The position numbers were made by a program, and so were the translations under genes. Shown here piece by piece: positions 2,102 to 27,534 of a stretch of 64,000 nt of DNA (its first letter is position 1; every line of letters begins with the position of its first letter). Below the pieces are notes generated by a model that searched no databases, had not been told where the DNA came from, and saw only the letters and a program-made list of their open reading frames with translations. Source of the stretch: an uncultured Gammaproteobacteria bacterium (GTDB lineage Bacteria; Patescibacteriota; Microgenomatia; Levybacterales; GWA1-39-11); assembly GCA_964651815.1 (NCBI GenBank), contig CAZYWG010000006.1, forward strand, positions 23,259 through 87,258, read 5' to 3'.

Positions 2102-2428
2102 ATGAAATTATTAGCGCTTACTGTCAACAACATGAAAGGCACGCCTGAACAAATTGTTCCTCCTACAGGCATTCCAACCGGTATCTCATTAGGATCACTT
2201 GCGACAGGATTTATTGATGTTGTTATGGTCATAGGCGTTCTACTCTCTCTTGCCTATCTTGTCTATGGAGGAGTTTTCTGGATTCAATCTAAAGGTAATA
2301 AAGAAACGCTTGATAAAGCAAGAAGGATAATTCTTTACGCAATTATTGGGCTTATTGTCATGTCTGTTGCGCTTGTTGCAGTAAACCTTGTGACATCAGC
2401 AATTGGCGTAACAACTCTAATTCACTAA
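2102..2428 (+). CDS. TrbC/VirB2-like pilin family protein
   Basis: 108 aa with two hydrophobic helices separated by SKGNKETLDKARRIILYAIIGLIV. Immediately downstream of 658..2100. Confidence 0.55.
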   Translation: MKLLALTVNNMKGTPEQIVPPTGIPTGISLGSLATGFIDVVMVIGVLLSLAYLVYGGVFWIQSKGNKETLDKARRIILYAIIGLIVMSVALVAVNLVTSAIGVTTLIH

Positions 2429-2437
2429 ATTTCAAAA

Positions 2438-3916
2438 TTATTTTTTGTAAATTACCGCAGTTTTATCTTCAAAGATCTTCGCCCAATGGTCATATTCTAG
2501 TCGGCTTATAAATCTCGCTTTATAGTGGTTTGAATTTTGCAATAAAGATATATCAACTCCAAATACATCAATGCTAAGTGGTTTTGAATTTTTGTTTTGC
2601 CACAAAACATAATGGACATTATATTTTTTAAAAAATTTTTCGTAGCTGGCCGCGCCGCTTACTATACTCGCATAATCTTTGAATGCTGAATCGCTTTCTG
2701 AAGCGCTCGCGCGCCACTGCCAGGAAGGCATCCTTCCATCAATAAATACACGTTTTTCAGGGAGCTTCCACAATAAATATCCTCCCCAATTATAAACTGA
2801 AAAAATTTCTCCATTTATATTTTGCTTTTTTAAAAATGAAACAGCACTTTTTGGATAATATTTTTTTTCGGAAAGATCTGAATGTAAACCAATAGAATAT
2901 GTTTTACTCAAAAAAACGGCAAGTGCGTATAGCACAAAGATTAAAACGGCTTTTGAAAAACGCGCGAGCATGGCTTCATTTTTTTTAACTTCTTCCCGGA
3001 AAAATTCAAAAAAAGGCGGAACAATTATTAGTGTCGCAACTATAAAATACGGTAAGTGCCTAACGCTTGATATAACAAGTAAAAGAAGTGCCAGATAAAT
3101 AACGAGTGCTTGAAGCTTCAACTTTTTCCTATATCTAAAAATTAGAACAAAAGACAAGGCTAAAAGTATAAAAAAGGAAAGGTCAAAAAAGAAAACCCCC
3201 GGGAGCCATTCAATTATTTCCCACCTTAATGCTGAATCTGTAATTGATGAAAGTACTTCTCCCCAGAGTCGCGCGCCGTATGGATTTATAAATGTGGCAA
3301 GAATTGATCCCCCCAAAACTAAAAAATCATATCGGTCTACTCTTTTTTGGATAATTCTCAAAACAATAAATATTGATAGTAGATAGATTGCTACCGCAAA
3401 ACTTCCATGAAGATTGGCCCAAATTAAAATTAATACTGGAATTGTAATTTTCCATTTCTTCCACAGTTTTTCATTCAACAAAACTGTAAGCAAGACAGCG
3501 GCCAAAAACCAGGAAATAACCTGTATTCTTAATCCTGAAAATGAAAGAAGAATTGATGCAGCCAGAAGAAAAAATGAGGCATAATACACTTTAAATTGTT
3601 TTTTAAGTGAAAATGCAATTGCACCTATTGGGAAAGCCGCAAAGAAGAAAGAAAGAAGAAGCGGATGTATTTTGTAAAGAAAGTATATTACTACATCCGC
3701 AAGCCACTCATGATCTATGGCCGGAAAAGAAAGCATAGTATAGGAAAAAGTGTCTTTATATTGAAAACCGTGTTTTAAAGTGAGTTCTCCGAGTTTTAAG
3801 TGCCATCCAAAATCAGGATCTAGTGCAATTGTGTTGTGGATAAAAAAAACTATAAAAGAAGCAAAAACTAAACCCAAAAAAATTACTAAAGCTATCCTCC
3901 TACTATTCAAATTCAT
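2438..3916 (-). CDS. Polytopic membrane protein (about 10-12 TM) with a roughly 130-aa C-terminal soluble domain. GT-C glycosyltransferase-like architecture; function uncertain.
   Basis: Hydropathy pattern of the translation. N-terminal loop DPDFGWHLKLGE. Soluble C-terminal domain VYNWGGYLLWKLPEKRVFIDGRMPSWQW. Embedded among the pilin genes. Confidence 0.45.
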   Translation of the reverse strand: MNLNSRRIALVIFLGLVFASFIVFFIHNTIALDPDFGWHLKLGELTLKHGFQYKDTFSYTMLSFPAIDHEWLADVVIYFLYKIHPLLLSFFFAAFPIGAIAFSLKKQFKVYYASFFLLAASILLSFSGLRIQVISWFLAAVLLTVLLNEKLWKKWKITIPVLILIWANLHGSFAVAIYLLSIFIVLRIIQKRVDRYDFLVLGGSILATFINPYGARLWGEVLSSITDSALRWEIIEWLPGVFFFDLSFFILLALSFVLIFRYRKKLKLQALVIYLALLLLVISSVRHLPYFIVATLIIVPPFFEFFREEVKKNEAMLARFSKAVLIFVLYALAVFLSKTYSIGLHSDLSEKKYYPKSAVSFLKKQNINGEIFSVYNWGGYLLWKLPEKRVFIDGRMPSWQWRASASESDSAFKDYASIVSGAASYEKFFKKYNVHYVLWQNKNSKPLSIDVFGVDISLLQNSNHYKARFISRLEYDHWAKIFEDKTAVIYKK

Positions 3917-4017
3917 ATGAGCTTTATTCTACAAAAATTGTTTATGCTTTGTCTTGGTGTATTTTGCAAACTCGGAAGCACTTGACAAACTATTTCAAAC
4001 GTGCTGTAATTAAAAAT

Positions 4018-4431
4018 GTGAAAAGAATTTCAAAGTATTTAGTTCTCCTTCTCCCCCTCTTGGGTTTTATAAATGTTCCTATAGTATCAGCTAATGTTTT
4101 GTTCTCAGGTGTTAATACTGGAAGAATAAGCAATAGAATTATAAGTCCAGATCAAAGCATTGGGTCAATCGTTTCATTCGCTGTTGCATTTATTGTAGTC
4201 CTCTCGTTTCTTCTTGCACTTATTTTTATTGTTATCGGAGCAGTCCAATGGATAACATCAGGTGGTGACAAACAAAAAGTGGCGGACGCACGAAACCATA
4301 TAATTTCTGCAATTATTGGACTTATAATTGTCGCGCTCTCTTTTGTCATTGTTAACATTGTTATAACGGCGCTTGGCCTTGGATCTCTCACAAACCTCAC
4401 TATCCCAACTCTTTCGGAATTTGGCCAATAA
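4018..4431 (+). CDS. TrbC/VirB2-like pilin family protein. The GTG start at 4018 is preferred over the ORF-track start at 3949.
   Basis: Signal peptide VKRISKYLVLLLPLLGFINVPIVSA, then two TM helices around SGGDKQKVADARNHIISAIIGLII. C-terminal tail ...TLSEFGQ. TTGACA(3983)-17-TGTAAT(4006) lies just upstream of the GTG, so the longer 3949 start would sit upstream of the promoter. Confidence 0.5.
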   Translation: MKRISKYLVLLLPLLGFINVPIVSANVLFSGVNTGRISNRIISPDQSIGSIVSFAVAFIVVLSFLLALIFIVIGAVQWITSGGDKQKVADARNHIISAIIGLIIVALSFVIVNIVITALGLGSLTNLTIPTLSEFGQ

Positions 4432-4474
4432 ATCTTCCTTGCTTTTGTATCTTTCTTCTTTGTAAAATAGATTT

Positions 4475-4798
4475 ATGAATGATTTTATTCCAACCTCTGA
4501 TTGGTCAAGCTGTTTGAGCAATGGGGACGTTGCCACTCTATCTTGTATTCCTATAGTTCTTCAAAATATTATTAATTTTCTTGTTCTTTTTGCAGGTATT
4601 GCGTGTGTTTTTATAATAATTTTTGCAGGTTTTAAATTCGTAACGTCAGAAGGAGACCCTGAAAAAGTTGCACTTGCAAGAAAAACCGCGATGTATGGAA
4701 TTGGAGGATTTTTATTGGTACTTGCGTCTTTTGTTCTTGTAACAATGATTTCTAAGTTTACGGGAGTCACCCAAATCGCACCAAAAAACATCCCTTAA
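4475..4798 (+). CDS. TrbC/VirB2-like pilin family protein
   Basis: Two TM helices around SEGDPEKVALARKTAMYGIGGFLLV. No classical cleavable signal peptide. A -10-like taaaat sits about 9 nt upstream of the ATG. Confidence 0.5.
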   Translation: MNDFIPTSDWSSCLSNGDVATLSCIPIVLQNIINFLVLFAGIACVFIIIFAGFKFVTSEGDPEKVALARKTAMYGIGGFLLVLASFVLVTMISKFTGVTQIAPKNIP

Positions 4799-5499
4799 TT
4801 TATCCTCCTGAGTAAAAACTTGGCTATTATAAAAATTACAGTATTCACGGCAACTGGAATTAAAAAAAGCAAAACTACTAGTTTTAATGCTCCAAGAATT
4901 CGATGATCAAAAATAACATGCGATATAGGAGTAATTAAGTCAACTTTTAGAAATTGCGCCATGAGTATTGCAATAAATGCTAAAAACGCAACTAACAAAA
5001 CTAAAAAGACGCTCCCCTCCATATCTTTTTTACTTGAAAACATTGTGTTGGTGATAAAAAAAACAATATAGATAACGCCGCCTGTTTTTAAAACATCAAA
5101 AAATGATGAAAAAATAATATCCGGGTGCAAAAAATTAAGGTAATAAAACAAAACACTAAAAATTATAATCATTCCTACCACGACAGGAGCCGCTCCAATT
5201 AAAAAACTCCTCACTATATCTGTTTTCCTTATCTCAACGCTCCCCATCCGAAAGTTGCCATGCTCTATTTTTGGTGAGATCTCCAAACCATAGGTTTTGA
5301 CAAATAAAGCTTCCGCAACAAGCATATGTGCAAGCTCATGAAGTACTACTCCGGGAAGGAATAAAATAAAAATGGGGATTGCTGCTCTATCACTCTTTTT
5401 GAAAAGTCTATATGAGAAAATAAAAAGCGCAGAAAAAATAAATTTTGAAGTTAAAAAAAGTATTAAGAACTCTGCCGCAAAAAGCGCCCAAAATATCAT
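4795..5499 (-). CDS. Integral membrane zinc metalloprotease-like protein (HExxH)
   Basis: Multi-TM protein with HELAHMLVAE (HExxH) at the end of an early TM segment. Last gene of the minus-strand operon with 5855..8956. Converges on the pilin genes with a 4-nt overlap. Confidence 0.45.
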   Translation of the reverse strand: MIFWALFAAEFLILFLTSKFIFSALFIFSYRLFKKSDRAAIPIFILFLPGVVLHELAHMLVAEALFVKTYGLEISPKIEHGNFRMGSVEIRKTDIVRSFLIGAAPVVVGMIIIFSVLFYYLNFLHPDIIFSSFFDVLKTGGVIYIVFFITNTMFSSKKDMEGSVFLVLLVAFLAFIAILMAQFLKVDLITPISHVIFDHRILGALKLVVLLFLIPVAVNTVIFIIAKFLLRRIN

Positions 5500-5847
5500 T
5501 TAGTTATCAGCCTTAATTATCTCAGCAAGCTTATCCCGGGTAATATCTAGATCCATTGCTTGAATCTCCTCGGCTGTTACATGATCCATTTCAGACATAG
5601 TTAAATCTCTAATTCTATTGTAAAAATTTTTATCCAGTTTTTCGCGATTTTCCATTGCTTCTTCAAAAGCGATAGCCATATTTTTTTCAAGTTTAATTCC
5701 AAATATTATTTTGTATGCTGCCCAAAGCATTCTCCCTATGTTAAATTTACTGTCCTCGCTGAGATTGTCGTATGAATCGATCAAATCTTTTTTAAATTCT
5801 TCATCAAGTGGCAAAATCTTAACTATGTCTTTTGTTGTTCTTATCAT
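5500..5847 (-). CDS. Hypothetical protein (115 aa)
   Basis: ORF tightly packed between 5855..8956 and 4795..5499. No recognisable motif. Confidence 0.4.
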   Translation of the reverse strand: MIRTTKDIVKILPLDEEFKKDLIDSYDNLSEDSKFNIGRMLWAAYKIIFGIKLEKNMAIAFEEAMENREKLDKNFYNRIRDLTMSEMDHVTAEEIQAMDLDITRDKLAEIIKADN

Positions 5848-5854
5848 ATATTTA

Positions 5855-8800
5855 TTATAGCGCTTCTCCTTCGTCTTTAAATCTATCTATAACTGCTAAT
5901 AAAGCATTTTCCATTTCAGTTACCTTTACATCTCCTGTATCCATTTGATCTTTGAGAATATCTAAAAATGTTTCAAAATTCGGTGTTATGAGTGGGCTAA
6001 AGGGTGTTCCGAATAAAGGTTCATTCATGATCTCCATAAGCCTATCTGGCGTAATAATGGAGCTTACTTTTTTGAAATATTCTTCTCGATCATTTCTATC
6101 CTTATATTTAAGCATTACATCAAGAAATTCATAGTATCCTCTCGGAGGTTTTTCCGGCGGATCCCTAAAGGTAACATCGCGTTCCGAAGGAGTGTAAGTT
6201 GTATAATCCGGATCCGTAGGATTAATTTTTGTATTTTTTGTAAATTCGTCCTTTTTTTCAAAAATCTCGTATCTTCTATCCATTATTCTGTCGAAGTTCT
6301 TTAAAAGATCGCTAGTTACTTCGATTTGCTTTATCTCACCACTCAAATCTACCTTGCCAATTTCATCCTCTTGTATCTTTATCTTACCGTCAAATTCTTT
6401 TTCTAATCTCTCTCCGGCTTGCGCCCTTGAATCAAACTTGATCATTGCAAACTTTACCGCATCATTAATTTCAGAATCTGAAGGAACGGGAGGCGGTGGA
6501 GTCCCAAGCACTGGCGCGCGCTTATCAAGCATTGCCTTAATCTCCGCAAAAGACATAGTTCTAAGCTCTTCGTCAGTTAAAGCCCAAGTTGGCTCATCGG
6601 TTAATTTTTTGAAATTACTTTCTAGATCTGCTTTTCTTGGAGTAGAACTTTCAATCCTCCGCCCTCTTGCCTCAATCATGGCATTAATTACCTTGTTGCG
6701 GATATCATCTTTATCGTTCTGTTCTTTTTTCCAACCCGCCGGAAGAACATTAACTAGATCCATTATTTGATCTATATCATTTGTTCTAAGCTGTGCGTCT
6801 GATAATCCAATTGCCCGTAGTTCTCTGTATGCCTTGGTGTAGCCTTCGGTGGTTGTCTTTATTTCTGTGAATCTTGAACCTTCCTCTTTGAGGTTGACTC
6901 TTTGCTCATCAATTTTATCAAGTACCTCTTGAAGTCTGTTTTTCTCTGTTAAGACTTTGTTTACATCTTCCTGAATTTTAGCAGCTTTTCGGGCGACCTC
7001 GCTGTCAATATTTTCTCTTGCTAATCGAAGTCTTTCACTAAAATGTTCCGCTTCTTCATCAGTTCGCTTTATAACACGACCTGCGATTTCCTCGTACTGT
7101 TCTTCTTGCCATGTTTCTAACTCTAAGTTTCGTTGTTTAGTAGATTTGATTCTATCCCCATTTATAATTACCTCTGTGCCAATTCCATTTATTACGTCGT
7201 CTAATCCTGACATTGCCCCTTCAATACTCGTAAACCGACCGGCAAAATTTCTTACGACCTCTTTTGTAGCTCTGGTACGTATTTCCTCTATCGCTTTTCT
7301 CCCCTTATTGTATTCTTCGATTGTTGTCTTCCCAGCATCTATAGACCCTCTATCTCTTTTATATAGATCTCTATTTGTTTCAAAGTCTTTAACTCTTGCT
7401 TTATAAACAGTCGCTTCTTCTCCCTTACTCTTATCTCTTGCTTTTATTTTCTCTTCCCATCTTGATGCTCCCGGCAAAGATGTTTTCTTCTGCTCAATAA
7501 TATACTTTTTAAGCTGGTCCATTGCCACGTCTAATCTCGCTTTTTCAAATCTCTCTCTGTTGCCATGGTAATCAAGCGTTGCTAGACCTGTTAGAAAAGC
7601 GGGATTGTTAATCCATGAATTGGTGGCATCATCAAACACTTTACGCGTCCGCCCTAATGTGTCTCGTATTCCGTCTTCGTCTGCATTAAATTTTTCGGCT
7701 ATTTCTTCCATGTATCTAACTGCTGTTTTTTCCGGATAGCCTTTCCTCCCATCAGAATTGTAAAGAAATCCGATTGCAAGAGCATCTGCTCCGGCCCTAT
7801 CCGCGTGAATATCCTTCATGAATTCCATCCTTGCCTTAATTCTTGCGTCAATATCGTGTCTAAGTTGTTTTTGATTAGCTTCACTCGCACCGGGCGAAGG
7901 ATTAAGAACGTTAATTCCCGACATTAGTCTTACGTATTTAATGCGATCTGGGCTTGATTTAATATATTCAAGTGCTTTTTTTGATTCATGTGAATCAGGT
8001 TTTTTATAATCTCTTGAAACACCTTTTCCAACTGCAAGTGCAATTGCCTCAGCTGCTGTCGGAGCAAAACCTAACGTCGCGGCAGCTAAAGCAGGCGCCA
8101 TACCAAGAGTTGCAACTCCTAATCCTCCTGCTAACGCTGCTCCTGCTCCGACAAGTAGTACTCCTGTCTGAAGTCTATTTTGGTCATTAAATCTTGATAG
8201 ATATGGATAAGGTATGCTTAATGGACCAATTTTCTTTGAACCTATTGCCGGAACAATAGGAACATTGGGCAATCTGATTGATCCTAATATTGCTACCTCA
8301 CCTTTTCTACCATCATAAGAAGCAGTAGGTTCAGAAAGAAATTCCTGGGCTTTTCTAGCTGGATATCCAAGAGGTCCTTCTCTCATTCCAAGTGGCGTTT
8401 GATCTCTCGGCTCTGTGCCGATATCTTCAGTTGGCCCAGGATTAGTTTCCGGTATTAACCCTAGTGCAGACGAATCAACTTCCGTCTGACGCCCCATCAT
8501 AATGTCAGTAATCACGTAACCCCTAGGACTGTTTAGAAACTCGTCAACACTTTTCTCAAGGTCATTTATATCTGCGTCCTCAAATTCAACCTTAAGGGCA
8601 CCAGTATCTGTTTTTCCGGCAAGTATCCCGTAAACTTCACGGTCTAAATCATCCATTAATTCAGGGGCGTCTTTTTTTACTTTTGACAAGCGGTCCTTAA
8701 TGTGGTCTGTCATGAAGCGTCTATATTTATCCCGAGTGTCCCGGCTGAGATCCGTCCAAGGGTTCCGTTCTTTTCTTTGCCCACCACTTCTATCTCTCAT

Positions 8801-8956
8801 CTCTTCCCCAGTTCCTCGCTCACTTACAAAAGAAGATATACGAAATTGAGTATCGTCTCGATTGAGCTCTCGTTTTGAAAGCTTGGTATTTTTATTGGAA
8901 GTTTTTGATTCACCTTCACCTGCTGTCTTTTCTAACGCGGCATCCGATACAGACAT
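5855..8956 (-). CDS. Large (1033 aa) charged, coiled-coil-rich protein with a central Gly/Ala-rich hydrophobic hairpin. No recognisable family.
   Basis: Long uninterrupted ORF. Residues about 264-311 read TGVLLVGAGAALAGGLGVATLGMAPALAAATLGFAPTAAEAIALAVGKG (nt about 8024..8167), flanked by highly charged K/E/R/D-rich sequence with heptad-like stretches. No P-loop. Confidence 0.6.
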   Translation of the reverse strand: MSVSDAALEKTAGEGESKTSNKNTKLSKRELNRDDTQFRISSFVSERGTGEEMRDRSGGQRKERNPWTDLSRDTRDKYRRFMTDHIKDRLSKVKKDAPELMDDLDREVYGILAGKTDTGALKVEFEDADINDLEKSVDEFLNSPRGYVITDIMMGRQTEVDSSALGLIPETNPGPTEDIGTEPRDQTPLGMREGPLGYPARKAQEFLSEPTASYDGRKGEVAILGSIRLPNVPIVPAIGSKKIGPLSIPYPYLSRFNDQNRLQTGVLLVGAGAALAGGLGVATLGMAPALAAATLGFAPTAAEAIALAVGKGVSRDYKKPDSHESKKALEYIKSSPDRIKYVRLMSGINVLNPSPGASEANQKQLRHDIDARIKARMEFMKDIHADRAGADALAIGFLYNSDGRKGYPEKTAVRYMEEIAEKFNADEDGIRDTLGRTRKVFDDATNSWINNPAFLTGLATLDYHGNRERFEKARLDVAMDQLKKYIIEQKKTSLPGASRWEEKIKARDKSKGEEATVYKARVKDFETNRDLYKRDRGSIDAGKTTIEEYNKGRKAIEEIRTRATKEVVRNFAGRFTSIEGAMSGLDDVINGIGTEVIINGDRIKSTKQRNLELETWQEEQYEEIAGRVIKRTDEEAEHFSERLRLARENIDSEVARKAAKIQEDVNKVLTEKNRLQEVLDKIDEQRVNLKEEGSRFTEIKTTTEGYTKAYRELRAIGLSDAQLRTNDIDQIMDLVNVLPAGWKKEQNDKDDIRNKVINAMIEARGRRIESSTPRKADLESNFKKLTDEPTWALTDEELRTMSFAEIKAMLDKRAPVLGTPPPPVPSDSEINDAVKFAMIKFDSRAQAGERLEKEFDGKIKIQEDEIGKVDLSGEIKQIEVTSDLLKNFDRIMDRRYEIFEKKDEFTKNTKINPTDPDYTTYTPSERDVTFRDPPEKPPRGYYEFLDVMLKYKDRNDREEYFKKVSSIITPDRLMEIMNEPLFGTPFSPLITPNFETFLDILKDQMDTGDVKVTEMENALLAVIDRFKDEGEAL

Positions 8957-8971
8957 ATACTTAATTATTAC

Positions 8972-9000
8972 TTGAAAGCGCTTGCTATTTCAACTATGAT
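8972..9000. promoter_or_regulatory. Compact bidirectional sigma70-like promoter pair for the divergent 5855..8956 and 9007..10353 genes
   Basis: Plus strand: TTGAAA(8972-8977)-17nt-TATGAT(8995-9000), with ATG at 9007. Minus strand: TTGAAA (complement of 8989-8994)-17nt-TAATAA, with ATG at 8956. The two -35 boxes form an inverted repeat. Confidence 0.4.
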
Positions 9001-9006
9001 AAAGAT

Positions 9007-10511: not shown

Positions 10512-11738
10512 ATGGAAAATCATCCTATACCACAAGACGTTACAGGCTTTAAATTTAAGCTGATTGGTAGCATGACTGTCAAACAGTTTTTATATCTATT
10601 AGGGTTTGGTATTTTGAGTATGATCTTTCTTATTTTCCACATGAATTTATTTATAAAAGTCCCTATCATGACCGTACTTGGGTGCATTGGAATATTTCTT
10701 GCATTTATTCCAATTGAAGGGCGTCCAGCGGACATTATGATAATGAATTTTGCAAAAGCAATTCCTTCTGAAAACAGGTACATTTTTAAAAAACGCGGCG
10801 TCAATTTGGCGAACTATGAAGCTTTCAAAATAATTGTCAAAAAGCCAGTTCCAGCGTCAGCAGCACCTGGGACGCAACCGTCTACACCAAAAAGTGTTTC
10901 TGATGATAAACGGGCAATTTTGATTTCGCGTCTTCGCAACTCTTCTTTCAGGCCTGATGATTCGGAAATTAAACAACTTAACAACATTAAAGCTATTTTT
11001 GATACAGATAGTAGTGCTACCCCACAAACGCAAATTTTTGTAAGTGAGCAAAAAAATAAACCAATGGTAGCAATACACGCCGACGAACCAAAAGTTGAAA
11101 TAACCAATGCTGTCTCCGCAGCGGCGCCAATTATACTTTCCTCTCCCGTGCCACAGGTAGCTGTGCATGAAATTAAGCCGCCCGAAGAAAAAAAAGCTGA
11201 TATGCCGGCAGAAAATCCGTCACTCCAAGCGGCAAAACCCGCTGCAAGCGAACAACCAGCGCAGCAAGAAGCGCCAAGACAAGAAATTCCACAGCCTCAA
11301 ATTAAACTTTCTGACAATGAAGAAAAAACACACTCTACCCCTCCCCCCGTGGCTATTGGCCAAGTATCTGCGCCTAATCTTGCCGGAGGATTCCCCACCC
11401 TTCCCGATGTTGGAAATGTAGTTCTTGGAATGGTTCGTGACGCTCGCGGCCGTACACTACCAAACATTTTGGTTGAGGTGGTGGACGACAACAATATTCC
11501 AGTGCGCGCTTTTAAAACAAACGCTTTAGGACAATTTGCTTCTGCTACCCCACTACCTGATGGCGTTTACAAAATACATTTTGAAGACCCGCAGAAAAAT
11601 CAGGAATTTGAAATTGTTGACATCAACCTTAGTGGCGAAATTTTTCAACCCATAGAAGCAGTTTCGGTTGACGCCCGAGAAAAATTAAGGCGCGAGCTTT
11701 TTGGCACTCAACCCGCAGCGCCAAGCTCAGTAGTATAA
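10512..11738 (+). CDS. PrgI/VirB3-like two-TM membrane protein with a long Pro-rich linker and a C-terminal prealbumin/carboxypeptidase-regulatory-like beta-sandwich domain
   Basis: N-terminus FKFKLIGSMTVKQFLYLLGFGILSMIFLIF...VPIMTVLGCIGIFLAFIPIEG resembles the small VirB3/PrgI component that precedes VirB4 genes. C-terminus GNVVLGMVRDARGRTLPNILVEVVDDNNIPVRAFKTNALGQFASATPLPDGVYKIHFE resembles CarboxypepD_reg-like folds. Confidence 0.45.
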   Translation: MENHPIPQDVTGFKFKLIGSMTVKQFLYLLGFGILSMIFLIFHMNLFIKVPIMTVLGCIGIFLAFIPIEGRPADIMIMNFAKAIPSENRYIFKKRGVNLANYEAFKIIVKKPVPASAAPGTQPSTPKSVSDDKRAILISRLRNSSFRPDDSEIKQLNNIKAIFDTDSSATPQTQIFVSEQKNKPMVAIHADEPKVEITNAVSAAAPIILSSPVPQVAVHEIKPPEEKKADMPAENPSLQAAKPAASEQPAQQEAPRQEIPQPQIKLSDNEEKTHSTPPPVAIGQVSAPNLAGGFPTLPDVGNVVLGMVRDARGRTLPNILVEVVDDNNIPVRAFKTNALGQFASATPLPDGVYKIHFEDPQKNQEFEIVDINLSGEIFQPIEAVSVDAREKLRRELFGTQPAAPSSVV

Positions 11739-11746
11739 AATAAATT

Positions 11747-12388
11747 ATGGCAAAAAAAGTTCATTCAACAACTCAAGACTTTACAGAAATAGTTGACATA
11801 TCAGACGACGTTGTTTTTTTTAGGGGAGGGAGCGCATGTATGATAGCCGAGGCGTCTTCAGTTAATTTTTTCCTTCTTTCAACTGATGAACAAAACGCAA
11901 GAATCTACGGATACATGGCTCTCCTAAATTCTTTGTCGTCATATCTCCAGATATTAATTGTTTCACGTCGTGTTGACCTTGGAAATTACTTAAAAATCAT
12001 TGACGAAAAAATTTCAAATGTTAAAAACCCTAAGATTTCAGAACAACTTGTTCTCTACCGCGATTTTATAAAAGATCTAATTAAGGGCGAAGGATTGCTT
12101 GATAAAAAAATCTATATTGTGGTCCCTTTTTCCCAACTTGAACTCGGTCCGTCATCTATGCCACAGCAAACAACGCAACAAGCAAGTAAACCCCTCTCTC
12201 TAAATGAGAGGATTAAATCCGGATTAATATCTAAAAGAAATAATGTCATAACTCAGGTTGAACGCATGGGGCTTACCGCAAAGCCACTTGGGACAAACGA
12301 ACTAATCAAGCTTTTTTACGAATTGTTTAACCAGGAATTTGTGACTCTGGACTTCAATTCAAGTGATATTAAGAATGTGATTATATAA
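11747..12388 (+). CDS. VirB4 N-terminal-like module encoded as a separate ORF (213 aa)
   Basis: DISDDVVFFRGGSACMIAEASSVNFFLLSTDEQNARIYGYMALLNSLSSYLQILIVSRRVDLGNYL resembles the first conserved region of TraC/VirB4-family N-termini. Same reading frame as the downstream ATPase ORF, separated from it by TAA/TAA/TAG stops. Confidence 0.4.
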   Translation: MAKKVHSTTQDFTEIVDISDDVVFFRGGSACMIAEASSVNFFLLSTDEQNARIYGYMALLNSLSSYLQILIVSRRVDLGNYLKIIDEKISNVKNPKISEQLVLYRDFIKDLIKGEGLLDKKIYIVVPFSQLELGPSSMPQQTTQQASKPLSLNERIKSGLISKRNNVITQVERMGLTAKPLGTNELIKLFYELFNQEFVTLDFNSSDIKNVII

Positions 12389-12403: not shown

Positions 12404-12480
12404 TTCGAAACCCGAAACAAGTTTTAAAAATTAAAAAATTAGAATTTGTTTCGAATTTCGATATTCGAATTTCGAATTTT
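12404..12480. repeat. Imperfect inverted repeat plus tandem tcgaattt units between the two VirB4 ORFs
   Basis: ttcgaaacccgaaacaa (12404-12420) pairs with ttgtttcgaatttcgat (12446-12462) at 14 of 17 positions, around a 25-nt A/T loop. Followed by tcgaattt at 12451, 12465 and 12473. Confidence 0.5.
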
Positions 12481-12481
12481 T

Positions 12482-14782
12482 ATGTTGGGCTTTGGGAAAA
12501 AAACAAAACAAATTCAAAATGAAGCACCTCAACAGGTATTGAGTGCCGCGGGCGAACCTACTGTGGCGCCACAAGTCCAACCAACAATTGTTGTAAAGGC
12601 CGGGACAAAAGGCAAAAAAGCAGCTGGACAAAGCTCGCATCCGCAAAACGTGCAAAGTAAAGGGTATGCTGCTCTTTCTCAAGGGGCTGTTTCTGTAGTT
12701 GACATTATTTCCCCGTCGTCAGTTGAAGTTGATTTTAAAAATATTCGCGTTGGAAATAAATTTTTCAGGACTTTTTTTGTTGTTGATTATCCACGGCAAG
12801 TATCTCCCAACTGGCTTTCAATACTCATCGACTACAAAGAGACTATGAACATTTCAATGTTCTCATACCCCGTTGAGAGCAAAGACGTATTAACAAATTT
12901 AAGAAGAAAAATTTCTGAGATGGAAGCAACGCTTCAATCAGACGCTGAGCAAGGACTTGAACCGGACCCTAAGACTAGCGCCGGGCTGGAAGATGCAATC
13001 GCTTTGCGAGAAGAACTGGCACGTGGGCTTGAGCGATTTTTCCAATTCGGTTTATATATCACTTTGGCCGCTGAAACTGTTGAAGAACTTGACTCAAAAA
13101 CCAAAGAGCTAACTTCTCTTCTTGCGTCAAACCTTTTACTTATTAAACCCGCAACTCTCCAAATGGAAGACGGATTCAAAACTACGTTGCCAGGCGGCGT
13201 TGACAAACTTTTTATAACTCGCAACATGGATACAACTTCTCTTGCTTCAACTTTTCCTTTCACGTCTTATGAAATATCACACCCTAATGGAATCCTGTAT
13301 GGAGTCAACACAATAAATAATTCACTTGCGATTGTGGACCGTTTTTCTTTTGAAAATGCAAATGAGGTAGTCTTTGGAAAGTCAGGTGCCGGAAAATCTT
13401 TCCTGGTAAAACTTGAAATACTTCGCCAAATGATGTTTGACGCGGAGATTTTGATTATCGACCCAGAAGATGAATATAGAGCTCTTTGCCACGCGCTTGA
13501 CGGCGAATACATTAATTTTTCAAAGGACTCTGACATTAAAATTAACCCATTTGCGCTAATTTCTGAAGACATGACAGACGCGCAACTTGGAATAAAAATC
13601 TTATCACTTCACGGGCTTCTCAAAACCATGCTTGGGGAGATGACGCCAACTCAAGAAGCAATTCTCGATAGGTCTCTTGTATTATGTTATAAGCAAAAAG
13701 GGATAACTCCGGACCCCGCAACTTACAGACAAGAACCACCAATTCTTGAAGATCTTTACAAAACTCTTCTTAACATGGAAGAACCCGAAGCAAAAGATCT
13801 TTCATTCAGGCTCGAAAAATATGTGAAAGGTGGTTTCTCAGGTCTTTTTAATCAACAAACAAATTATGATGTTAAAAACCAACTAACTGTTTTTTCAATA
13901 AAACAACTTGAAGACGCGCTCCGTCCAATTGCTATGCATGTAATTTTGGATTTTATCTGGAACCGCGTCAGGACAAAGCTTAAAAAAAGAATACTGGTAG
14001 TTGATGAGGCGTGGTATCTAATGCAACACCCTGATTCTGCAAGTTTTTTGCAAGGAATTGCCAAACGGGCAAGAAAATATTTCCTTGGAGTAACTACTCT
14101 TACTCAAGATATTGAAGACTTTCTCAATAACGATTATGGAAAATCCATTTTATCTAATTCCTCAGTTCAAATTCTTTTAAAACAGAATTCTTCAGAAGTT
14201 GAAACCCTGGCAAAAGCGCTATTTTTATCGGAAGGAGAAAAACAATTTCTAGTGACGGCACAAGTTGGAGAAGGGCTTTTGTTTGCCGGGCAAAATCACA
14301 TAACCGCTCAGTTTGTGGCATCAAATTCAGAATATGAACTAATTACTTCAAAGCCACAAGATATATTAAGAAATGAACAGGACGCGGAAAATATTCAGGC
14401 GGCACAATTGGCTTCCGCGCAAGCTAATCCGCCTCAACCCACAGAACAAACACAAGCGCCGCCACCTCCACCAGAACAACCAATGCAACCTCAACAGCCT
14501 ACGGCAATACCAGTGGTACCTACCCAAAGCGTGCCGACACAAGATCCTGAAAACATCACAGTTGTTCCACAGCAAATCCAGACACCAGTACAACCTGCTG
14601 TAACACAGCAACCAATCACACAAATACCTACAGTGAGTGTACCCCAGCCAGGTACCATCCCGGCAGCACCAATTGCTTCTTTCAATCAAGCTCTCCCTAC
14701 AGCGCCCCCTGTAGCGCCACAACCCCCGATTGTTCCTACGGAAAACGTTCAGCCCCCTACAAATCCCACTGGGAGCGCATAA
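12482..14782 (+). CDS. virB4: VirB4/TrbE/CagE-family type IV secretion ATPase (ATG at 12482 preferred; ORF-track TTG at 12446)
   Basis: N-terminal region IISPSSVEVDFKNIRVGNKFFRTFFVVDYPRQVSPNWLSILIDY..MNISMFSYP. Walker A FGKSGAGKSF (nt 13375-13398). Walker B ILVVDEAWYLMQ. About 140-aa Pro/Gln-rich C-terminal extension. Confidence 0.8.
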   Translation: MLGFGKKTKQIQNEAPQQVLSAAGEPTVAPQVQPTIVVKAGTKGKKAAGQSSHPQNVQSKGYAALSQGAVSVVDIISPSSVEVDFKNIRVGNKFFRTFFVVDYPRQVSPNWLSILIDYKETMNISMFSYPVESKDVLTNLRRKISEMEATLQSDAEQGLEPDPKTSAGLEDAIALREELARGLERFFQFGLYITLAAETVEELDSKTKELTSLLASNLLLIKPATLQMEDGFKTTLPGGVDKLFITRNMDTTSLASTFPFTSYEISHPNGILYGVNTINNSLAIVDRFSFENANEVVFGKSGAGKSFLVKLEILRQMMFDAEILIIDPEDEYRALCHALDGEYINFSKDSDIKINPFALISEDMTDAQLGIKILSLHGLLKTMLGEMTPTQEAILDRSLVLCYKQKGITPDPATYRQEPPILEDLYKTLLNMEEPEAKDLSFRLEKYVKGGFSGLFNQQTNYDVKNQLTVFSIKQLEDALRPIAMHVILDFIWNRVRTKLKKRILVVDEAWYLMQHPDSASFLQGIAKRARKYFLGVTTLTQDIEDFLNNDYGKSILSNSSVQILLKQNSSEVETLAKALFLSEGEKQFLVTAQVGEGLLFAGQNHITAQFVASNSEYELITSKPQDILRNEQDAENIQAAQLASAQANPPQPTEQTQAPPPPPEQPMQPQQPTAIPVVPTQSVPTQDPENITVVPQQIQTPVQPAVTQQPITQIPTVSVPQPGTIPAAPIASFNQALPTAPPVAPQPPIVPTENVQPPTNPTGSA

Positions 14783-20443: not shown

Positions 20444-20500
20444 TGTGGATAACTTTTTGTCAAGAGTCGTTTTATTGCTATACTCTATCAATATGGATAA
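20444..20500. promoter_or_regulatory. DnaA boxes upstream of dnaA (candidate oriC / autoregulatory region)
   Basis: Perfect TGTGGATAA at 20444-20452 and an 8/9 box tatggataa at 20492-20500. Confidence 0.5.
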
Positions 20501-20648: not shown

Positions 20649-20674
20649 TTTAGTCTTAGACTATAATATGATTT

Positions 20675-23068: not shown

Positions 23069-24049
23069 TTAGTCCAGATTTTTGTAAACAACAACAAGAA
23101 GAGAAATAAACGGTATTGCTAGAAGCGCACCTATAATACCAAGTAGTTTACCCCCGGTAATAATCGCAAGTATGATAACAATCGGATTGAGTCCAACAGC
23201 CCGTTGCATAACTCGAGGTACAACCACGTGGTTTTCAATTAGCTGAATAAAAACATAAGAGATTCCAACAGCCCCAGCCATAGTAAGAGAAATATTAAAA
23301 GCGACAATAAGTGCTGGAATTGCAGAAATAATAGGTCCAATTGTTGGGACAAGCTCAAAAACTCCAGCAATAACAGCCAATGGCAGCGCAAATTCTATGC
23401 CAAGTACAGTTAACACAAACCACGTAAGCATTCCAATTACAAATGACAAAACAATTTGTCCTCTTAGCCAGCTACCTAGCTTATCTTCCACTAAAACAGT
23501 TGTCCGTTTTACTTTTTCTGCGCTTTTTTTTGGGAAAAGAGTGACAAAGCTACGCCTAACCGTTTCGCGATATAAAAGAAGATAGAAAGATATTGCAAAA
23601 ACACTAATGATTGAAAAAATACTCCCAAAAATTTTGCTAGTAATTGATAATGCGCCGCTACCTATATTATTAATCTCTGAAGCAGCAAATGTTGTAAGTT
23701 GACTGGCGTCAATTGCCACTCCAAGAAGCTTTGCCTCGCGGTATAGATAGGCAGGAAAGGACGAGAGTAAAAGTTGAATTTGTGATATTAAAAATGGCAA
23801 AAGCGAAAGAATTACCACAAAAATCAAAGCGACACTTATGAAGTATGGAATAGCCGCAGCAAAAGCTCTTGGCACTCTCTTTTTTTCAAGGAAATTAGAA
23901 TAAGGTTCAATTGCAGCCATAAGAATATACGCCACAAAAAAAGCAATAAGCACATCCCTGACTTCAATAACAAGCCAAGTAGCGGCAATAACTAAAAGCG
24001 CTGTTAGTATTTGATTTTGAAATATGTATTTGGCCAGCCGTTTTCTCAC
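23069..24049 (-). CDS. AI-2E family (PerM/UPF0118) transporter
   Basis: Eight-TM pattern with the C-terminal signature ...GVFELVPTIGPIISAIPALIVAF. Confidence 0.7.
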   Translation of the reverse strand: MRKRLAKYIFQNQILTALLVIAATWLVIEVRDVLIAFFVAYILMAAIEPYSNFLEKKRVPRAFAAAIPYFISVALIFVVILSLLPFLISQIQLLLSSFPAYLYREAKLLGVAIDASQLTTFAASEINNIGSGALSITSKIFGSIFSIISVFAISFYLLLYRETVRRSFVTLFPKKSAEKVKRTTVLVEDKLGSWLRGQIVLSFVIGMLTWFVLTVLGIEFALPLAVIAGVFELVPTIGPIISAIPALIVAFNISLTMAGAVGISYVFIQLIENHVVVPRVMQRAVGLNPIVIILAIITGGKLLGIIGALLAIPFISLLVVVYKNLD

Positions 24050-24084
24050 ACGGCAATTATAACATTATAGGATGTAAAGAGCAA

Positions 24085-24711
24085 TTGGTGTATAATAAAT
24101 TAGTGGACAAGATTTTGATTCTTGACATAGACGGAACACTTTTTAATTCTAACCGTTTTGGAGAGCAGATTCGCGCCGAATTTATTAAGATACTCGGAAT
24201 TGAGGAAGATGATTTAGTAAGGACAATTGCCGACTATTATGCAGCGCTTGAACACTACTCCGATTTTAACCCAAGAGAAATAACTGACTTTGTTTCTAAG
24301 CGCTATTCTGTAGATCGCGCGTTACTTGACGAGGTTTTCTGGGGGGAAGATGTGATTTATAGAGAATCATTATATTCTGAAACAGTTGACGTTCTTAAAA
24401 AACTTTCAGGAAATAAAACGCTCGGGATCTTCTCACAAGGCAACCAAGAATTACAAGAAAGAAAATTAACGGCAGCAGGAATTATTAAGTTTTTTGACCC
24501 CGGATATATTTTTGTCCACGCAAGAAAGCTTTCGGATGAAGCAATAGCAATTCTGCCGCGCGCCTCAACTGTAATTGACGATAATCATGATGTAGCCGTC
24601 ACTATCTCCTCGTTTGTTAACTCAATCTGGATAAACAGACGAACTGAAGATAAGGATTCCCAAGTCAAAACAATCCACAATTTGAATGAGTTAATAGCAA
24701 ATAGTAAATAG
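24085..24711 (+). CDS. HAD-superfamily hydrolase
   Basis: Motif I ILILDIDGTLFNS (DxDGT). Confidence 0.7.
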   Translation: MVYNKLVDKILILDIDGTLFNSNRFGEQIRAEFIKILGIEEDDLVRTIADYYAALEHYSDFNPREITDFVSKRYSVDRALLDEVFWGEDVIYRESLYSETVDVLKKLSGNKTLGIFSQGNQELQERKLTAAGIIKFFDPGYIFVHARKLSDEAIAILPRASTVIDDNHDVAVTISSFVNSIWINRRTEDKDSQVKTIHNLNELIANSK

Positions 24712-24712
24712 T

Positions 24713-25492
24713 TTATTTTTTGCCAACCACAACCCACATGGCTTTACCTTCTATTAAATCGTCGACATTTAAGCCTGCTTTTGTAAACTCTTCCGCTATC
24801 TCATCACGAGTAAAACGGTGAGAAGTAAATACTCTTTTTCCGTTAACGTGTATAGCTACGTCGTGATTTTTTTGATCATACCAGAATTGTGGCATAGCAT
24901 GGTGCTCATCCATAACAGAGTCCCAAAAAAAGCTATATCCTGCATACTCAATAATTTCTGCTAGCAAGTTATTGTCGTTTGGATTTAGGGTCTGGAGATG
25001 GTCCGATTTTTTAATACGACTTGCAAGTTTAACATGCTGGGTTCTTTTGTATACTGAAATAATAACGCGATCATCCGGCTTCATTACCGAATGAACATTC
25101 CTTAATGCGAGAATTCTTTCACTCTTACTGAAGTTCCCAAACGTGTTAATTAATGACAGATAAATTAATGGATTATTAGCATTTTCCTTCGCGATTTTTT
25201 GAGAATACTTTGGTTTAAACAAATCATCAACGTAAAGCTCTACTTCGTGGCTGCATTTATTGGCTACCTTTTGACAGAAATCAATCATAACGGGGGAATA
25301 GTCTATTCCAATTATCTTTGCTACATTTTTTAATTTATCTATCCATGCTAATTCTCTACCTGTTCCAATACCTAGGTCTACTAAAACTTTTTCTTTCTGA
25401 GGCGCAAATGATTCTATAACACCCACCACAATTTTTTCATCAACAACTCCGGAGGCTCCTTTGGTTGCTTCTTCGTGGTATTCTTGAGGCAT
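24713..25492 (-). CDS. Class I SAM-dependent methyltransferase. The start is uncertain because the ORF-track start at 25597 overlaps the upstream gene.
   Basis: VLVDLGIGTGRELAWI glycine-rich SAM loop. An internal Met (MPQEYHEE) gives a non-overlapping start. Confidence 0.6.
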   Translation of the reverse strand: MPQEYHEEATKGASGVVDEKIVVGVIESFAPQKEKVLVDLGIGTGRELAWIDKLKNVAKIIGIDYSPVMIDFCQKVANKCSHEVELYVDDLFKPKYSQKIAKENANNPLIYLSLINTFGNFSKSERILALRNVHSVMKPDDRVIISVYKRTQHVKLASRIKKSDHLQTLNPNDNNLLAEIIEYAGYSFFWDSVMDEHHAMPQFWYDQKNHDVAIHVNGKRVFTSHRFTRDEIAEEFTKAGLNVDDLIEGKAMWVVVGKK

Positions 25493-25520
25493 TTTAGTGT
25501 GAAACCAAAACGCTTTGTGG

Positions 25521-26132
25521 TTATTCGTTGTCATCTTGAAGCACGGTTTTTTCTTTTTGAAAGATAATCTTTGGATTAGGTGCAGCAATTGGGTCAAATA
25601 TCCACTCCTCTTTCCATTCTACAGGAGTAAATGACCAGGCTTTAGATATCCAGCCTTGTTTAGAAGCTCTAGTAAAAAAATCAACTAATTGATTCTGAGA
25701 TTTTGTTGACACGACGAGCATTATATCCCACTCGTTACCTTGCAATATATATGCATGACGAATTATGTCGATATTCATCTCTTTTTCAACTTCTTTAAGT
25801 CCCGTTAAATAATCTTTAGTTACCCATCCAACGGGAAATTTTGTTTCCATTCCAATAACTGGGGGTTGAATAGCAGCTTTAACTAAAACTATGTAATATC
25901 CGTCCCAAACCTTAACCTGATCCAAAATTGAAACGCGATCTTTGAGGAGAATTTTCTTTTCTCGGAGACTTTTTATTCGATTTTTTGCTTCTGTTGCATC
26001 AATCCCCACTTTTTTTGCGAGTGCTTCATATTCTTGTTCTGAAAACTCTTTTTCTTTTGCGAGTTCCCACATTATTTCAACATCTTTTTTATCAACACTT
26101 GCCTCGGTCAATTTTCTATAAATACTTGCCAT
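25521..26132 (-). CDS. Lrp/AsnC-like transcriptional regulator (extended; 203 aa)
   Basis: KKDVEIMWELAKEKEFSEQEYEALAKKVGIDATEAKNRIKSLREKKIL fits the Lrp HTH consensus. A beta-rich C-terminal half follows. Confidence 0.4.
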   Translation of the reverse strand: MASIYRKLTEASVDKKDVEIMWELAKEKEFSEQEYEALAKKVGIDATEAKNRIKSLREKKILLKDRVSILDQVKVWDGYYIVLVKAAIQPPVIGMETKFPVGWVTKDYLTGLKEVEKEMNIDIIRHAYILQGNEWDIMLVVSTKSQNQLVDFFTRASKQGWISKAWSFTPVEWKEEWIFDPIAAPNPKIIFQKEKTVLQDDNE

Positions 26133-26189
26133 GATTTGGATTATACTACTCTAGAAGTTAAGTTCAAATGCCTCTGCTATAATCTGACT

Positions 26190-26666
26190 ATGGTAATTTT
26201 GGGGATTGATCCGGGGATTGGCAGAACTGGTTGGGGAATAATTGACAAACAGGGTTCAAAAACAAAATCGTTAGGCTATGGATGCATTGAAACTGAAGCA
26301 GGACTTCCTTTAGAAAGACGCCTCCAAATAATTTGCGAAGAACTCGTTAAGATAATAAAAAAACACAAACCACATATGATGGGTATCGAAGATCTTTTCT
26401 TCAATACGAATGCCAAAACTGCCTTAATTGTTGGACAAGCTCGGGGAGCAATTATTGTTACGGCAGTGGGTCTTGGTTTGGAAATATTTTCCTACACTCC
26501 CCTTCAGGTTAAGACAGCAGTGACGGGATACGGACGAGCAGAAAAAGCGCAAATGGGGAAAATGGTAAAGATGCTTTTAAATTTGCCGGAAATACCAAAA
26601 CCTGATGATACGTGTGACGCGCTAGCCTGCGCGCTAGCCTGCGCGTTTTCTAGGAAGAACATTTAG
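26190..26666 (+). CDS. ruvC: Crossover junction endodeoxyribonuclease RuvC
   Basis: MVILGIDPGIGRTGWGII start. A TATAAT box at 26178-26183 lies 6 nt before the ATG (leaderless?). The 3' end carries a perfect 12-bp tandem duplication gcgctagcctgc x2 (26619-26642), giving ALACALAC. Confidence 0.85.
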   Translation: MVILGIDPGIGRTGWGIIDKQGSKTKSLGYGCIETEAGLPLERRLQIICEELVKIIKKHKPHMMGIEDLFFNTNAKTALIVGQARGAIIVTAVGLGLEIFSYTPLQVKTAVTGYGRAEKAQMGKMVKMLLNLPEIPKPDDTCDALACALACAFSRKNI

Positions 26667-27061
26667 GGCTTAAGCAGGGGTATAAAATTTGCATCTGACT
26701 CGGGTCCAAGCCCCAGAGCTGAGAGGATTACATTTACCATAACAAAAAAAGCGGCAGTAGCCAAAAATCCCACAATACCAAAAATAAGCTTCTGTTTTGC
26801 ACTGCTTTGTTTCACTCTGTCTCCTCTCGATAAAACCAGCTGAAAAATTCCCATTAAAATTAGTAATATCGATGAGAGAAATCCAAAAACAATGATCGCT
26901 TCCAGAAAAAAGTAAATTAGATAGTCGTAACCTAAGGACGTATCCGGCATAGTTATTTGGTCAGGAGGTGTTGCAACGTAGTCAGTCGATTTTAAAACGT
27001 CAGCATGGGCTGGCAAAGCAAAAAGCAGGAATAAAGGGAAAGTTAATAGAGCCTTTTTCAT
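26663..27061 (-). CDS. TrbC/VirB2-like pilin family protein
   Basis: Signal peptide MKKALLTFPLFLLFALPAHA. Two TM helices around SRGDRVKQSSAKQKLIFGIVGFLA. Inserted between ruvC and ruvA on the opposite strand. Confidence 0.5.
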   Translation of the reverse strand: MKKALLTFPLFLLFALPAHADVLKSTDYVATPPDQITMPDTSLGYDYLIYFFLEAIIVFGFLSSILLILMGIFQLVLSRGDRVKQSSAKQKLIFGIVGFLATAAFFVMVNVILSALGLGPESDANFIPLLKP

Positions 27062-27063
27062 AA

Positions 27064-27534
27064 TTATTGCCCAAACTCACTGAGGTTTGGAACACAGAGG
27101 CTGAGAGGTGAAGCTCCAATCCCAAACGCAGTATTCACAACATTAACTAATATAAAAATAACAAATATCAACCCGAGGGTAATTAAACCTGCAAAAATAC
27201 GATTTTTTGCGCTCCGCGATTTTTGTTTATCTTTTCTGAATTTTATCCACATGAAAACGCCAGTTAAAATAAAGACTAAAGATGAAAGAGAAATAGCCGT
27301 TGCAAACACCTCAAATAAAAGATTTAAAACAGTGTATGTGAGAGAATAGTGATATACATTACATGGTGAAGAATGGCCACTCATTAACAAAGACAATAGA
27401 GACATGAGATAGAGAGGCAAAGTGATTACGGGTGTTATTGTAAACATATTTGTTTTTTTCCAAAAAACAAAAACAATAACCATGGTCAACAAAGCAAGCA
27501 ACCCGATAATAACCGCGGAATTTAAAGTTTCCAT
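27064..27534 (-). CDS. TrbC/VirB2-like pilin family protein (extra N-terminal TM segments)
   Basis: C-terminal hairpin FRKDKQKSRSAKNRIFAGLITLGLI. Ends ...VPNLSEFGQ, the same tail as the 4018..4431 pilin. Confidence 0.5.
   Translation of the reverse strand: METLNSAVIIGLLALLTMVIVFVFWKKTNMFTITPVITLPLYLMSLLSLLMSGHSSPCNVYHYSLTYTVLNLLFEVFATAISLSSLVFILTGVFMWIKFRKDKQKSRSAKNRIFAGLITLGLIFVIFILVNVVNTAFGIGASPLSLCVPNLSEFGQ

Follow-up and report, generated by a model that had tools for sequence, protein, structure and literature searches.

A VirB2-like pilin array in a Levybacteria chromosome, with two divergent c-type copies between ruvC and ruvA and a type-specific C-terminal tail

Introduction

How a monoderm bacterium builds a VirB2-type pilus is a standing question in the field (PMC12857230). 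The locus described herein lies in a 64,000-nucleotide stretch of DNA (GenBank assembly GCA_964651815.1, contig CAZYWG010000006.1, positions 23,259 to 87,258 of the forward strand; hereafter, the window) and combines a type IV secretion system (T4SS) with six open reading frames (ORFs) resembling VirB2 pilins. Arrays of 2-11 VirB2-like genes near virB4 and dnaA have been described in Patescibacteria, most commonly in Microgenomates and Saccharibacteria (Quinonero-Coronel et al. 2025, PMC12102498). The pilin array of Southlakia is essential (Wang et al. 2023, PMC10633639; reviewed in PMC12857230). Genetic tests, made in a single Patescibacterium, show that epibiotic growth requires the T4SS and its array (PMC10633639). 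The window is part of a low-GC chromosome of Candidatus Levybacteria (Microgenomates, Patescibacteria/Candidate Phyla Radiation): the G+C content is 38.7%, RuvB has 64-74% identity to its counterparts in Candidatus Levybacteria genomes, and the same DNA is also found in the Logan assemblies of SRR9179560 and SRR9179562.

An initial annotation of the window had united the six ORFs by one shared motif, had noted that two of them interrupt the ruvC-ruvAB cluster on the opposite strand, and had proposed that LSEFGQ, a C-terminal tail common to two non-adjacent paralogues, could be a processing or cyclisation site served by an adjacent membrane protein with an HExxH motif. Are these ORFs pilins, how do two of them come to lie at ruv, and what is the tail for? 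In the present study, we arrive at an explanation that we consider likely, namely that the six ORFs are PF18895 pilins of a known kind of system, comprising an array of four subunit types (a-d), a fast-evolving pair of c-type copies, a retained type-specific tail, and an optional M50-like protease.

Results

All six ORFs are present in the window, four on the forward strand (658..2100, 2102..2428, 4018..4431, and 4475..4798) and two on the reverse strand (26663..27061 and 27064..27534). A hidden Markov model (HMM) trained solely on pilins of three other Levybacteria (12 sequences, none from the window) was run on all window ORFs of 40 aa or longer (612 in total) and recovered precisely these six, with E values from 1.4e-31 to 2.4e-11 and nothing further at E <= 10. 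The gathering score of Pfam PF18895 (T4SS_pilin), 26.6 bits, was exceeded by 4018..4431 (40.7 bits) and 4475..4798 (35.6 bits), and the family was matched by all 108 c-type orthologues, two of which also matched PF04956 (TrbC/VirB2; best E 7e-06) and one T4SS_CagC; none of the six window ORFs matched PF04956 at E <= 0.1. In the six-ORF alignment, two helices joined by a short basic loop were seen in every sequence. The VirB2-like identity initially given to the ORFs is thus upheld through PF18895. The motif itself fared less well, since its literal pattern matches none of the six: the spacer following A-[RK] is x2, not x3. With the shorter spacer, judged by eye on the alignment, every position fits in 658, 4018, and 26663 only; T replaces K in 2102, and several positions deviate in 4475 and 27064, the latter having F-R-K-D for S-x-G-D. 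The single invariant column of the alignment is A70, and the pairwise identity of the paralogues is ~15-35%. What does stand, far above chance, is the family kinship, and the noted motif is the basic loop joining both helices of the pilin hairpin. As judged from sequence, the six ORFs are PF18895 (VirB2-like) pilins of a chromosomal, origin-proximal T4SS.

The four forward-strand pilins form an array. Type a (658..2100; HMM E 7.8e-29) has a signal peptide, a Cys-rich extracellular domain of ~390 aa, and a C-terminal pilin hairpin ending ...VDILRIPGIGR; orthologues of 236-560 aa were found in every Levybacteria locus examined, and this fusion of Cys-rich domain and hairpin is a candidate tip or adhesin subunit. 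Types b (2102..2428, 108 aa; HMM E 8.4e-28) and d (4475..4798, 107 aa; HMM E 1.4e-31) are short, and type c (4018..4431, 137 aa, >120 orthologues) consists of a cleavable-looking signal peptide (cut after ..VSA and before N), a helical hairpin, and a C-terminal tail. The ATG at 4018 was taken as the start of type c because its orthologues are 130-140 aa long. The same gene order, that is, winged-helix regulator, pilins a and b, sometimes an antisense membrane protein of ~480 aa, pilins c and d, PrgI, TraC-like protein, and VirB4, was observed in six independent Levybacteria loci reached via the c-type pilin. One-to-one orthologues of the array pilins occur in L083-L088 and L173-L175 and also in the more distant loci L091 and L092. 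Across the Levybacteria loci, type a orthologues share 31-59% identity with the window pilin, type b 36-64%, type c 59-77%, and type d 54-62%. Since a separate orthologue of every window pilin was seen at all of these loci, a-d are old, distinct subunit types with a fixed gene order rather than recent variants.

The array is headed by the C-terminal part of a winged-helix (Trans_reg_C) regulator (174..623, +; PF00486 E 1.3e-22) whose orthologues (62-66% identity) occupy the same position in L083, L085, L087, and L173-L175; because these are 433-459 aa long, the gene probably starts upstream of the window. The four pilin genes lie 5.7-12 kb upstream of the genes for PrgI, a VirB3-like protein with a CarboxypepD_reg domain (10512..11738, +; PF12666 27.9 bits; orthologues in all loci examined), and for a VirB4-type ATPase (12446..14782, +; PF19044 E 2.1e-33, PF12846, PF03135). 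A small TraC-like protein is encoded between them (11747..12388, +), with 73-76% identity to proteins of L083, L085, and L087, where the genes are PF26593 TraC-like. The secretion locus is adjoined, after VirB4, by dnaN and dnaA.

The remaining two pilins are found ~22 kb from the array and ~12 kb past VirB4, with dnaA in between, where, as the initial annotation had stated, they lie antisense between ruvC (26136..26666, +; PF02075 E 6.8e-49) and ruvA-ruvB (27560..29202, +, with ruvA at 27560..28165 and ruvB at 28165..29202; PF01330, PF14520, PF07499, and PF05496, the last with E 5.7e-78). The first of these accessory pilins (26663..27061, -; 132 aa; HMM E 5.6e-18) has a signal peptide (cut after ..AHA and before D), a hairpin, and the tail ALGLGPESDANFIPLLKP; the second (27064..27534, -; 156 aa; HMM E 2.4e-11) has additional hydrophobic segments at its N-terminus, a loop degenerated to FRKDKQK, and the tail AFGIGASPLSLCVPNLSEFGQ, in which LSEFGQ is encoded at 27067..27084. 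Only 2 nt separate the two pilin genes, and 26663..27061 reaches at its 3' end into the ruvC stop codon, with 4 bases shared. Descent from type c is indicated by clade HMM scores of 57.5 and 49.4 bits for c compared with at most 36 bits for a, b, and d; clade c is still the best when the last 22 residues of the pair are removed (38.8 and 38.5 bits), and in a neighbour-joining tree the pair forms long branches within clade c.

In the closest GTDB genomes, ruvC, ruvA, and ruvB are contiguous in six loci (L003, L009-L012, and L014), and in five others (L004, L006-L008, and L013) the gap between ruvC and ruvA holds other cargo, with no pilin among it. This cargo includes a cupin-like antisense gene (L006 and L007), a purD-like gene with PIN and antitoxin genes (L007), and other ORFs. 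Because the cargo differs, this gap is variable in Levybacteria and their relatives, and the pilin pair is no ancestral feature of the former. In other words, the cluster is contiguous in most relatives and is interrupted by the pair in the window, and the alternative of a conserved ancestral arrangement is contradicted by the lack of the pair at 10 other Levybacteria-type loci. At least one sister species does carry the pair at the same place and in the same orientation between ruvC and ruvA (contigs L176-L178), and the pair is therefore older than the window species. The same sister species is probably also the source of L093.

The sister orthologue of 26663..27061 was reached by exhaustive phmmer search as one protein of 48-49% identity at the same position; for 27064..27534, a word-indexed search returned only the query itself, and the orthologue, with 36.6% identity, was reached via phmmer with the neighbouring pilin. 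Between the window and the sister species, identity is thus 48% and 36.6% for the pilins, compared with 89.5% for RuvB, 88.5% for RuvC, 81% for a 203-aa neighbour, and 75% for RuvA. The hairpin, the loop charges, two cysteines, and the tail are conserved between the window pair and the sister pair, and both frames are intact. The window copy 27064..27534 ends LCVPNLSEFGQ and its sister orthologue LCIPTLKEFN, and both keep a second Cys in the N-terminal outside segment. A c pilin from the same sample as the sister species, which may or may not belong to the same genome, has HDFGN. By these sequence comparisons, the pair represents real, fast-evolving extra copies of the c type in a spacer with varying cargo.

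Some further observations were made around ruv. A recent horizontal insertion was considered and rejected, as the flanks of the pair had neither direct nor inverted repeats of a convincing kind and the base composition did not change. A promoter scan of 26000-28300 was uninformative (11 sites compared with 6.4 ± 3.2 expected). The 3' end of ruvC contains a perfect 12-nt tandem duplication (CGCGCTAGCCTG twice; 26618..26641, +) encoding ALACALAC, which is old because the RuvC of the sister species has the same peptide. Genes for a MazE-like antitoxin and a PIN-domain toxin lie directly 3' of ruvB (29264..29909, +).

In an AlphaFold2 model of pilin c (4018..4431), helices were predicted at residues 48-79 and 85-118 with a predicted local distance difference test (pLDDT) score >90, and the shared motif TSGGDKQKVADARNHIISAIIG (4255..4320, +) covers the basic inter-helix loop and the start of helix 2. 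In the c-type alignment (A3), which comprises 107 homologues, drawn from >120, and the window protein, W78, I79, S81, G82, G83, D84, K85, V88, A91, R92, I95, A98, G101, and L102 are invariant. The tail that follows, ALGLGSLTNLTIPTLSEFGQ (4369..4428, +; LSEFGQ at 4411..4428), is also conserved: L119 in 97% of these 108 sequences, G120 in 95%, G122 in 97%, L127 in 86%, I129 in 84%, P130 in 71%, T131 in 69%, L132 in 94%, and F135 in 53%. The column of L124 is likewise kept, and the last two positions are free to vary, giving a consensus of GLG-x-L-x-x-L-x-IPTL-x-[EDQ]-F, of which LSEFGQ is a local form.

LSEFGQ is the extreme C-terminus of both 4018..4431, where it follows LGLG, and 27064..27534, where it follows FGIG, and it ends no other window ORF, as originally reported. 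The broader proposal of a conserved pilin tail holds in part. Conservation extends well beyond this genome, with the IPTL-type consensus being widespread, but the exact LSEFGQ form is local, occurring in 3 of the 120 listed homologues, those closest to the window, and the tail is confined to type c. More distant c-type pilins from metagenomic loci keep IPTL, IPSL, or LPTL and then end, or continue for at most ~12 further residues; in several lineages two cysteines bracket the IPSL-type motif, e.g. LCIPSLANPTC. Type a ends with DIL+IPGF.., and the ending of type d frequently carries two Cys; since a and d have endings of their own, the tail is type-specific rather than general to pilins. Judged on this alignment, a tail of the form GLG-x-L-x-x-L-x-[IL]P[TS]L followed by 0 to ~12 variable residues is a hallmark of the c type. 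In the two window copies of LSEFGQ, four of the six codons differ, with Ser encoded by TCG in one and AGT in the other; these codon differences make a recent gene conversion unlikely and point to selection on the peptide as the reason why the tail was kept in the divergent copy.

The HExxH protein (4795..5499, -; 234 aa) is encoded convergently with pilin d and, as annotated, carries HELAH; it is a putative zinc protease, distantly like M50/site-2 proteases. No Pfam or NCBIfam family matched the window protein, which has hundreds of Patescibacteria homologues. In 30 of these homologues, F-x-P-G-x3-H-E-x2-H and N-T-M-F-S-S-x2-D are invariant, with H54, E55, H58, and D159 in or at the end of predicted helices, consistent with the M50 pattern of HExxH followed by an Asp in a later helix. 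PF13398 (Peptidase_M50B) was matched by 8 of the 30 (best E 2.3e-05). The best match of the family profile in the PDB, a weak one, was 3b4r (MjS2P, an archaeal site-2 protease; E 0.03), and the top five Foldseek matches of the structural model (pLDDT 90.8) included SpoIVFB and MjS2P below threshold (E 0.4-0.55, TM-scores 0.27-0.34). These results suggest weakly that the protein is a distant M50-like membrane protease.

Gene linkage, the firmer line of evidence for this protein, was scored in loci of ~12 kb (6 kb on each side). Among 80 metagenomic loci found with the HExxH family alignment, 30 carry PF18895-type pilin genes, the nearest of which is at most ~100 bp from the HExxH gene in 29. 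When identical copies were removed and at least 400 bp of downstream sequence was required, 57 distinct loci remained; a convergent pilin gene lies within 300 bp in 24 of them, over several deep branches of the family tree, and no pilin gene is nearby in 33. The suspected co-occurrence of the HExxH gene with pilin genes is therefore real and far above chance. In the usual context, the HExxH gene separates the VirB4, TraC-like, and PrgI genes from pilins d, c, b, and a and the regulator gene. The HExxH gene was present in four of the seven Levybacteria loci chosen through the pilin, and the pilin c tail is kept at loci without it (L085/086, L087/088, and L175). Thus, the gene is a frequent but optional member of the pilin locus. 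A type IV pilus context for the family was also considered, as in L089 (6001..9985) a homologue is encoded directly upstream of T2SSE ATPase, T2SSF platform, and N_methyl prepilin genes; it was rejected as a general context, since L089 was the only such case and none of the 80 metagenomic loci repeated it.

Discussion

In the explanation that we favour, the tail most likely stays on the c-type subunit, where it would serve at the surface or in packing, rather than being discarded as a propeptide, and the accessory pair would provide alternative c-type subunits fitting the same machine, with the assembly parts kept and the exposed parts varied. The loop would face the cytoplasm while the subunit is in the membrane, with the tail outside the cell, a placement suggested by the positive-inside rule for the basic loop, by a leader with a conserved small-x-A site, and by the cysteine pairs; in the assembled pilus, the loop might face the lumen, by analogy with the F and T pili. 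For the putative HExxH protease, the most likely role would be proteolysis of a pilin transmembrane segment, either the leader peptide or the pilin itself. Such a cut is the more natural guess because site-2 proteases cleave within membrane helices, not in extracellular tails. Eep of Enterococcus, which cuts leader peptides to yield pheromones controlling a Gram-positive conjugation system, shows that M50 enzymes can act on leaders in a conjugation context.

Several observations weigh against this explanation. The PF18895 scores of 658..2100 (22.5 bits, on residues 401-466), 2102..2428 (24.3 bits), and 27064..27534 (20.5 bits) are below the cut-off, 26663..27061 has no Pfam match, and the formation of a pilus by these six proteins is a prediction. 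When the pilin c model was compared with solved structures using Foldseek, no VirB2, TraA, or other pilin was significant (best E 1.6), and a sequence profile of pilin c gave no significant pilin match among solved structures; the conjugative pilus of the archaeon Aeropyrum (8dfu) came 13th among the Foldseek matches (E 5.3, TMt 0.63, and an rmsd of 2.9 across 70 columns), a bare hairpin being poorly discriminating. The tail was modelled at moderate confidence (pLDDT 67-77), and its placement outside the cell depends on the positive-inside rule only. The M50 assignment is weak by profile, TM-score, and Pfam matches, and the positive-inside rule gave conflicting answers for the side of the active site in the HExxH model. 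Finally, a shared processing enzyme could also explain the identical tails.

This last possibility takes its fullest form in the proposal that the tail is a recognition or cleavage signal, possibly for cyclisation as in TrbC/VirB2, with the adjacent HExxH protease as the dedicated processing enzyme, which appears unlikely to us. The conservation of the tail in >100 orthologues speaks for it, as do the convergence of the HExxH gene with the last pilin gene over deep clades and the identity of the tails within the genome where orthologues vary (SEFGQ in 3 of the 120 listed homologues), with the differing codons expected if both pilins fit one partner; moreover, some c-type orthologues end at ...PTL or ...PQL (P0097, L123, and L148), and therefore the residues beyond may be dispensable. 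However, the tail is present in loci that lack the protease gene, and most of the distinct protease homologues (33/57) have no nearby pilin gene. The two cysteines around IPSL in several lineages, and the Cys before [IV]P and the Cys in the N-terminal outside segment kept by 27064..27534 and its orthologue, suggest a folded, retained tail rather than a propeptide. The idea of a C-terminal extension in pilins stems from TrbC, whose cyclisation is carried out by a LepB-like serine peptidase (TraF), not by a metalloprotease, and cleavage within membrane helices, typical of site-2 proteases, would not suit an extracellular tail. A reading in which the HExxH protein would serve solely to mature the T4SS pilins of Patescibacteria, recognising c types, accessory copies included, by leader or conserved tail, is likewise doubtful.

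Two simpler accounts would deny function altogether, to the tail or to the accessory pair. If the ORFs between ruvC and ruvA were non-functional, decaying duplicates or chance ORFs, the degenerate loop of 27064..27534 (FRKDKQK for SxGDKxK), its lack of a Pfam match above the cut-off and of a homologue in the word-indexed search, and the fast evolution of both accessory pilins would be readily understood. This is highly improbable given that the frames are intact in both species at 37-48% protein identity, with hairpin, loop charges, two cysteines, and tail all conserved, that the HMM matches both pilins (E 5.6e-18 and 2.4e-11), and that the genes are tightly packed against each other and against the ruvC stop codon. 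Least probable of all is that the identical LSEFGQ tails merely reflect a recent gene conversion or a very recent duplication; both proteins are paralogues of one clade, and pilin genes elsewhere recombine, but in addition to the differing codons, including those for Ser, the last 27 nt are identical at only 19 positions (hand count), the rest of the domain is only ~45% identical in protein, and the pair predates the split from a sister species with 89.5% identical RuvB.

The kind of system described herein is already published; the new details are the accessory pair outside the array, tails that are specific to a pilin type, and the protease linked to the locus. Like the VirB2-like arrays of Patescibacteria (PMC12102498, PMC10633639), the window array has several divergent PF18895 genes in a row, lies by PrgI/VirB3-like and VirB4 genes close to dnaA, and belongs to a Microgenomates-type host, the group in which arrays are most abundant; the reported mean paralogue identity of 25% is also similar to that observed here. 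Unlike the published arrays, the window has two copies ~22 kb away inside ruvC-ruvAB, four orthologous types are resolved, each with its own C-terminal signature, and a gene for an M50-like membrane protease is often in the locus. Neither a protease acting in this way nor cyclisation nor a tail on the pilins came up in term searches of the main text of PMC12102498 and PMC10633639.

TrbC of RP4 and VirB2 of Agrobacterium resemble the window pilins in their small size, leader peptide, two hydrophobic helices, basic loop, and VirB4-type system, and the 2 of 108 c-type orthologues that match PF04956 add to this likeness; in contrast, neither by sequence nor by fold does the window pilin significantly match a solved VirB2- or TraA-type pilin, and the window host is a monoderm. 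No TraF/LepB-like (S26) peptidase was found among the scanned proteins of the secretion locus. The M50 site-2 proteases (MjS2P, SpoIVFB, RseP, and Eep) likewise have HExxH in a membrane helix, a short beta-sheet, and an Asp in a later helix, but the second motif of the window family is NTMFSSxxD rather than NxxPxxxLDG, the window protein lacks PDZ and CBS domains, and all matches are below significance. A VirB2-like hairpin in a wall-less or monoderm host is also known from the Mbov_0395 family of Mycoplasma integrative and conjugative elements (NCBIfam NF045849), which three window pilins match weakly (E 5e-07 to 2.3e-04; 21-29 bits, all under the 40-bit cut-off).

One testable lead is that the Levybacteria array falls into four conserved subunit types, which differ in their C-terminal signatures. 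The extra c copies keep the tail while exposed parts change, a pattern to be expected if assembly depended on the tail and contact with the host on the remaining parts. In many Microgenomates, the array is accompanied by a gene for a membrane metalloprotease; if the HExxH protein were the maturation protease, the identity of the tails within one genome would reflect co-evolution with a single enzyme, and the pilin-processing route would be unrelated to the TraF/LepB route of RP4.

Other genes of the array region

A multi-pass membrane protein of 492 aa is encoded antisense within the pilin array, between b and c (2438..3916, -). Orthologues with 38-51% identity occupy the same spot in L083, L087, and L093, and the gene is absent at that spot in L085 and L173-L175. 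No Pfam or NCBIfam family matched the protein, and a profile search against PDB sequences gave nothing; its invariant motifs are LDPDFGWHL, DHEW, NLHG, NPYG, EWLPG, and FIDGRMPSW. As a speculation, it might be a putative pilin-modifying enzyme. Beside the array, an antisense gene pair encodes proteins of 115 aa (5500..5847, -) and 1033 aa (5855..8956, -), the latter charged and probably coiled-coil; neither matched a Pfam family above its cut-off, and orthologues were found in some relatives, namely L085/L086 (51% and 26% identity, respectively) and L093. Small 23S_rRNA_IVP genes (PF05635) are found beside or inside the regulator-pilin array in L085, L086, L091, L174, and L175, with none there in the window.

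In many distant homologues retrieved by exhaustive phmmer with 26663..27061, pilin hairpins occur in tandem, with 2 to 7 per polypeptide. For example, P0244 (386 aa) has four near-identical hairpin repeats, and P0259 (583 aa) has seven; these tandem-hairpin proteins look like 'polypilin' proteins or unsplit precursors.

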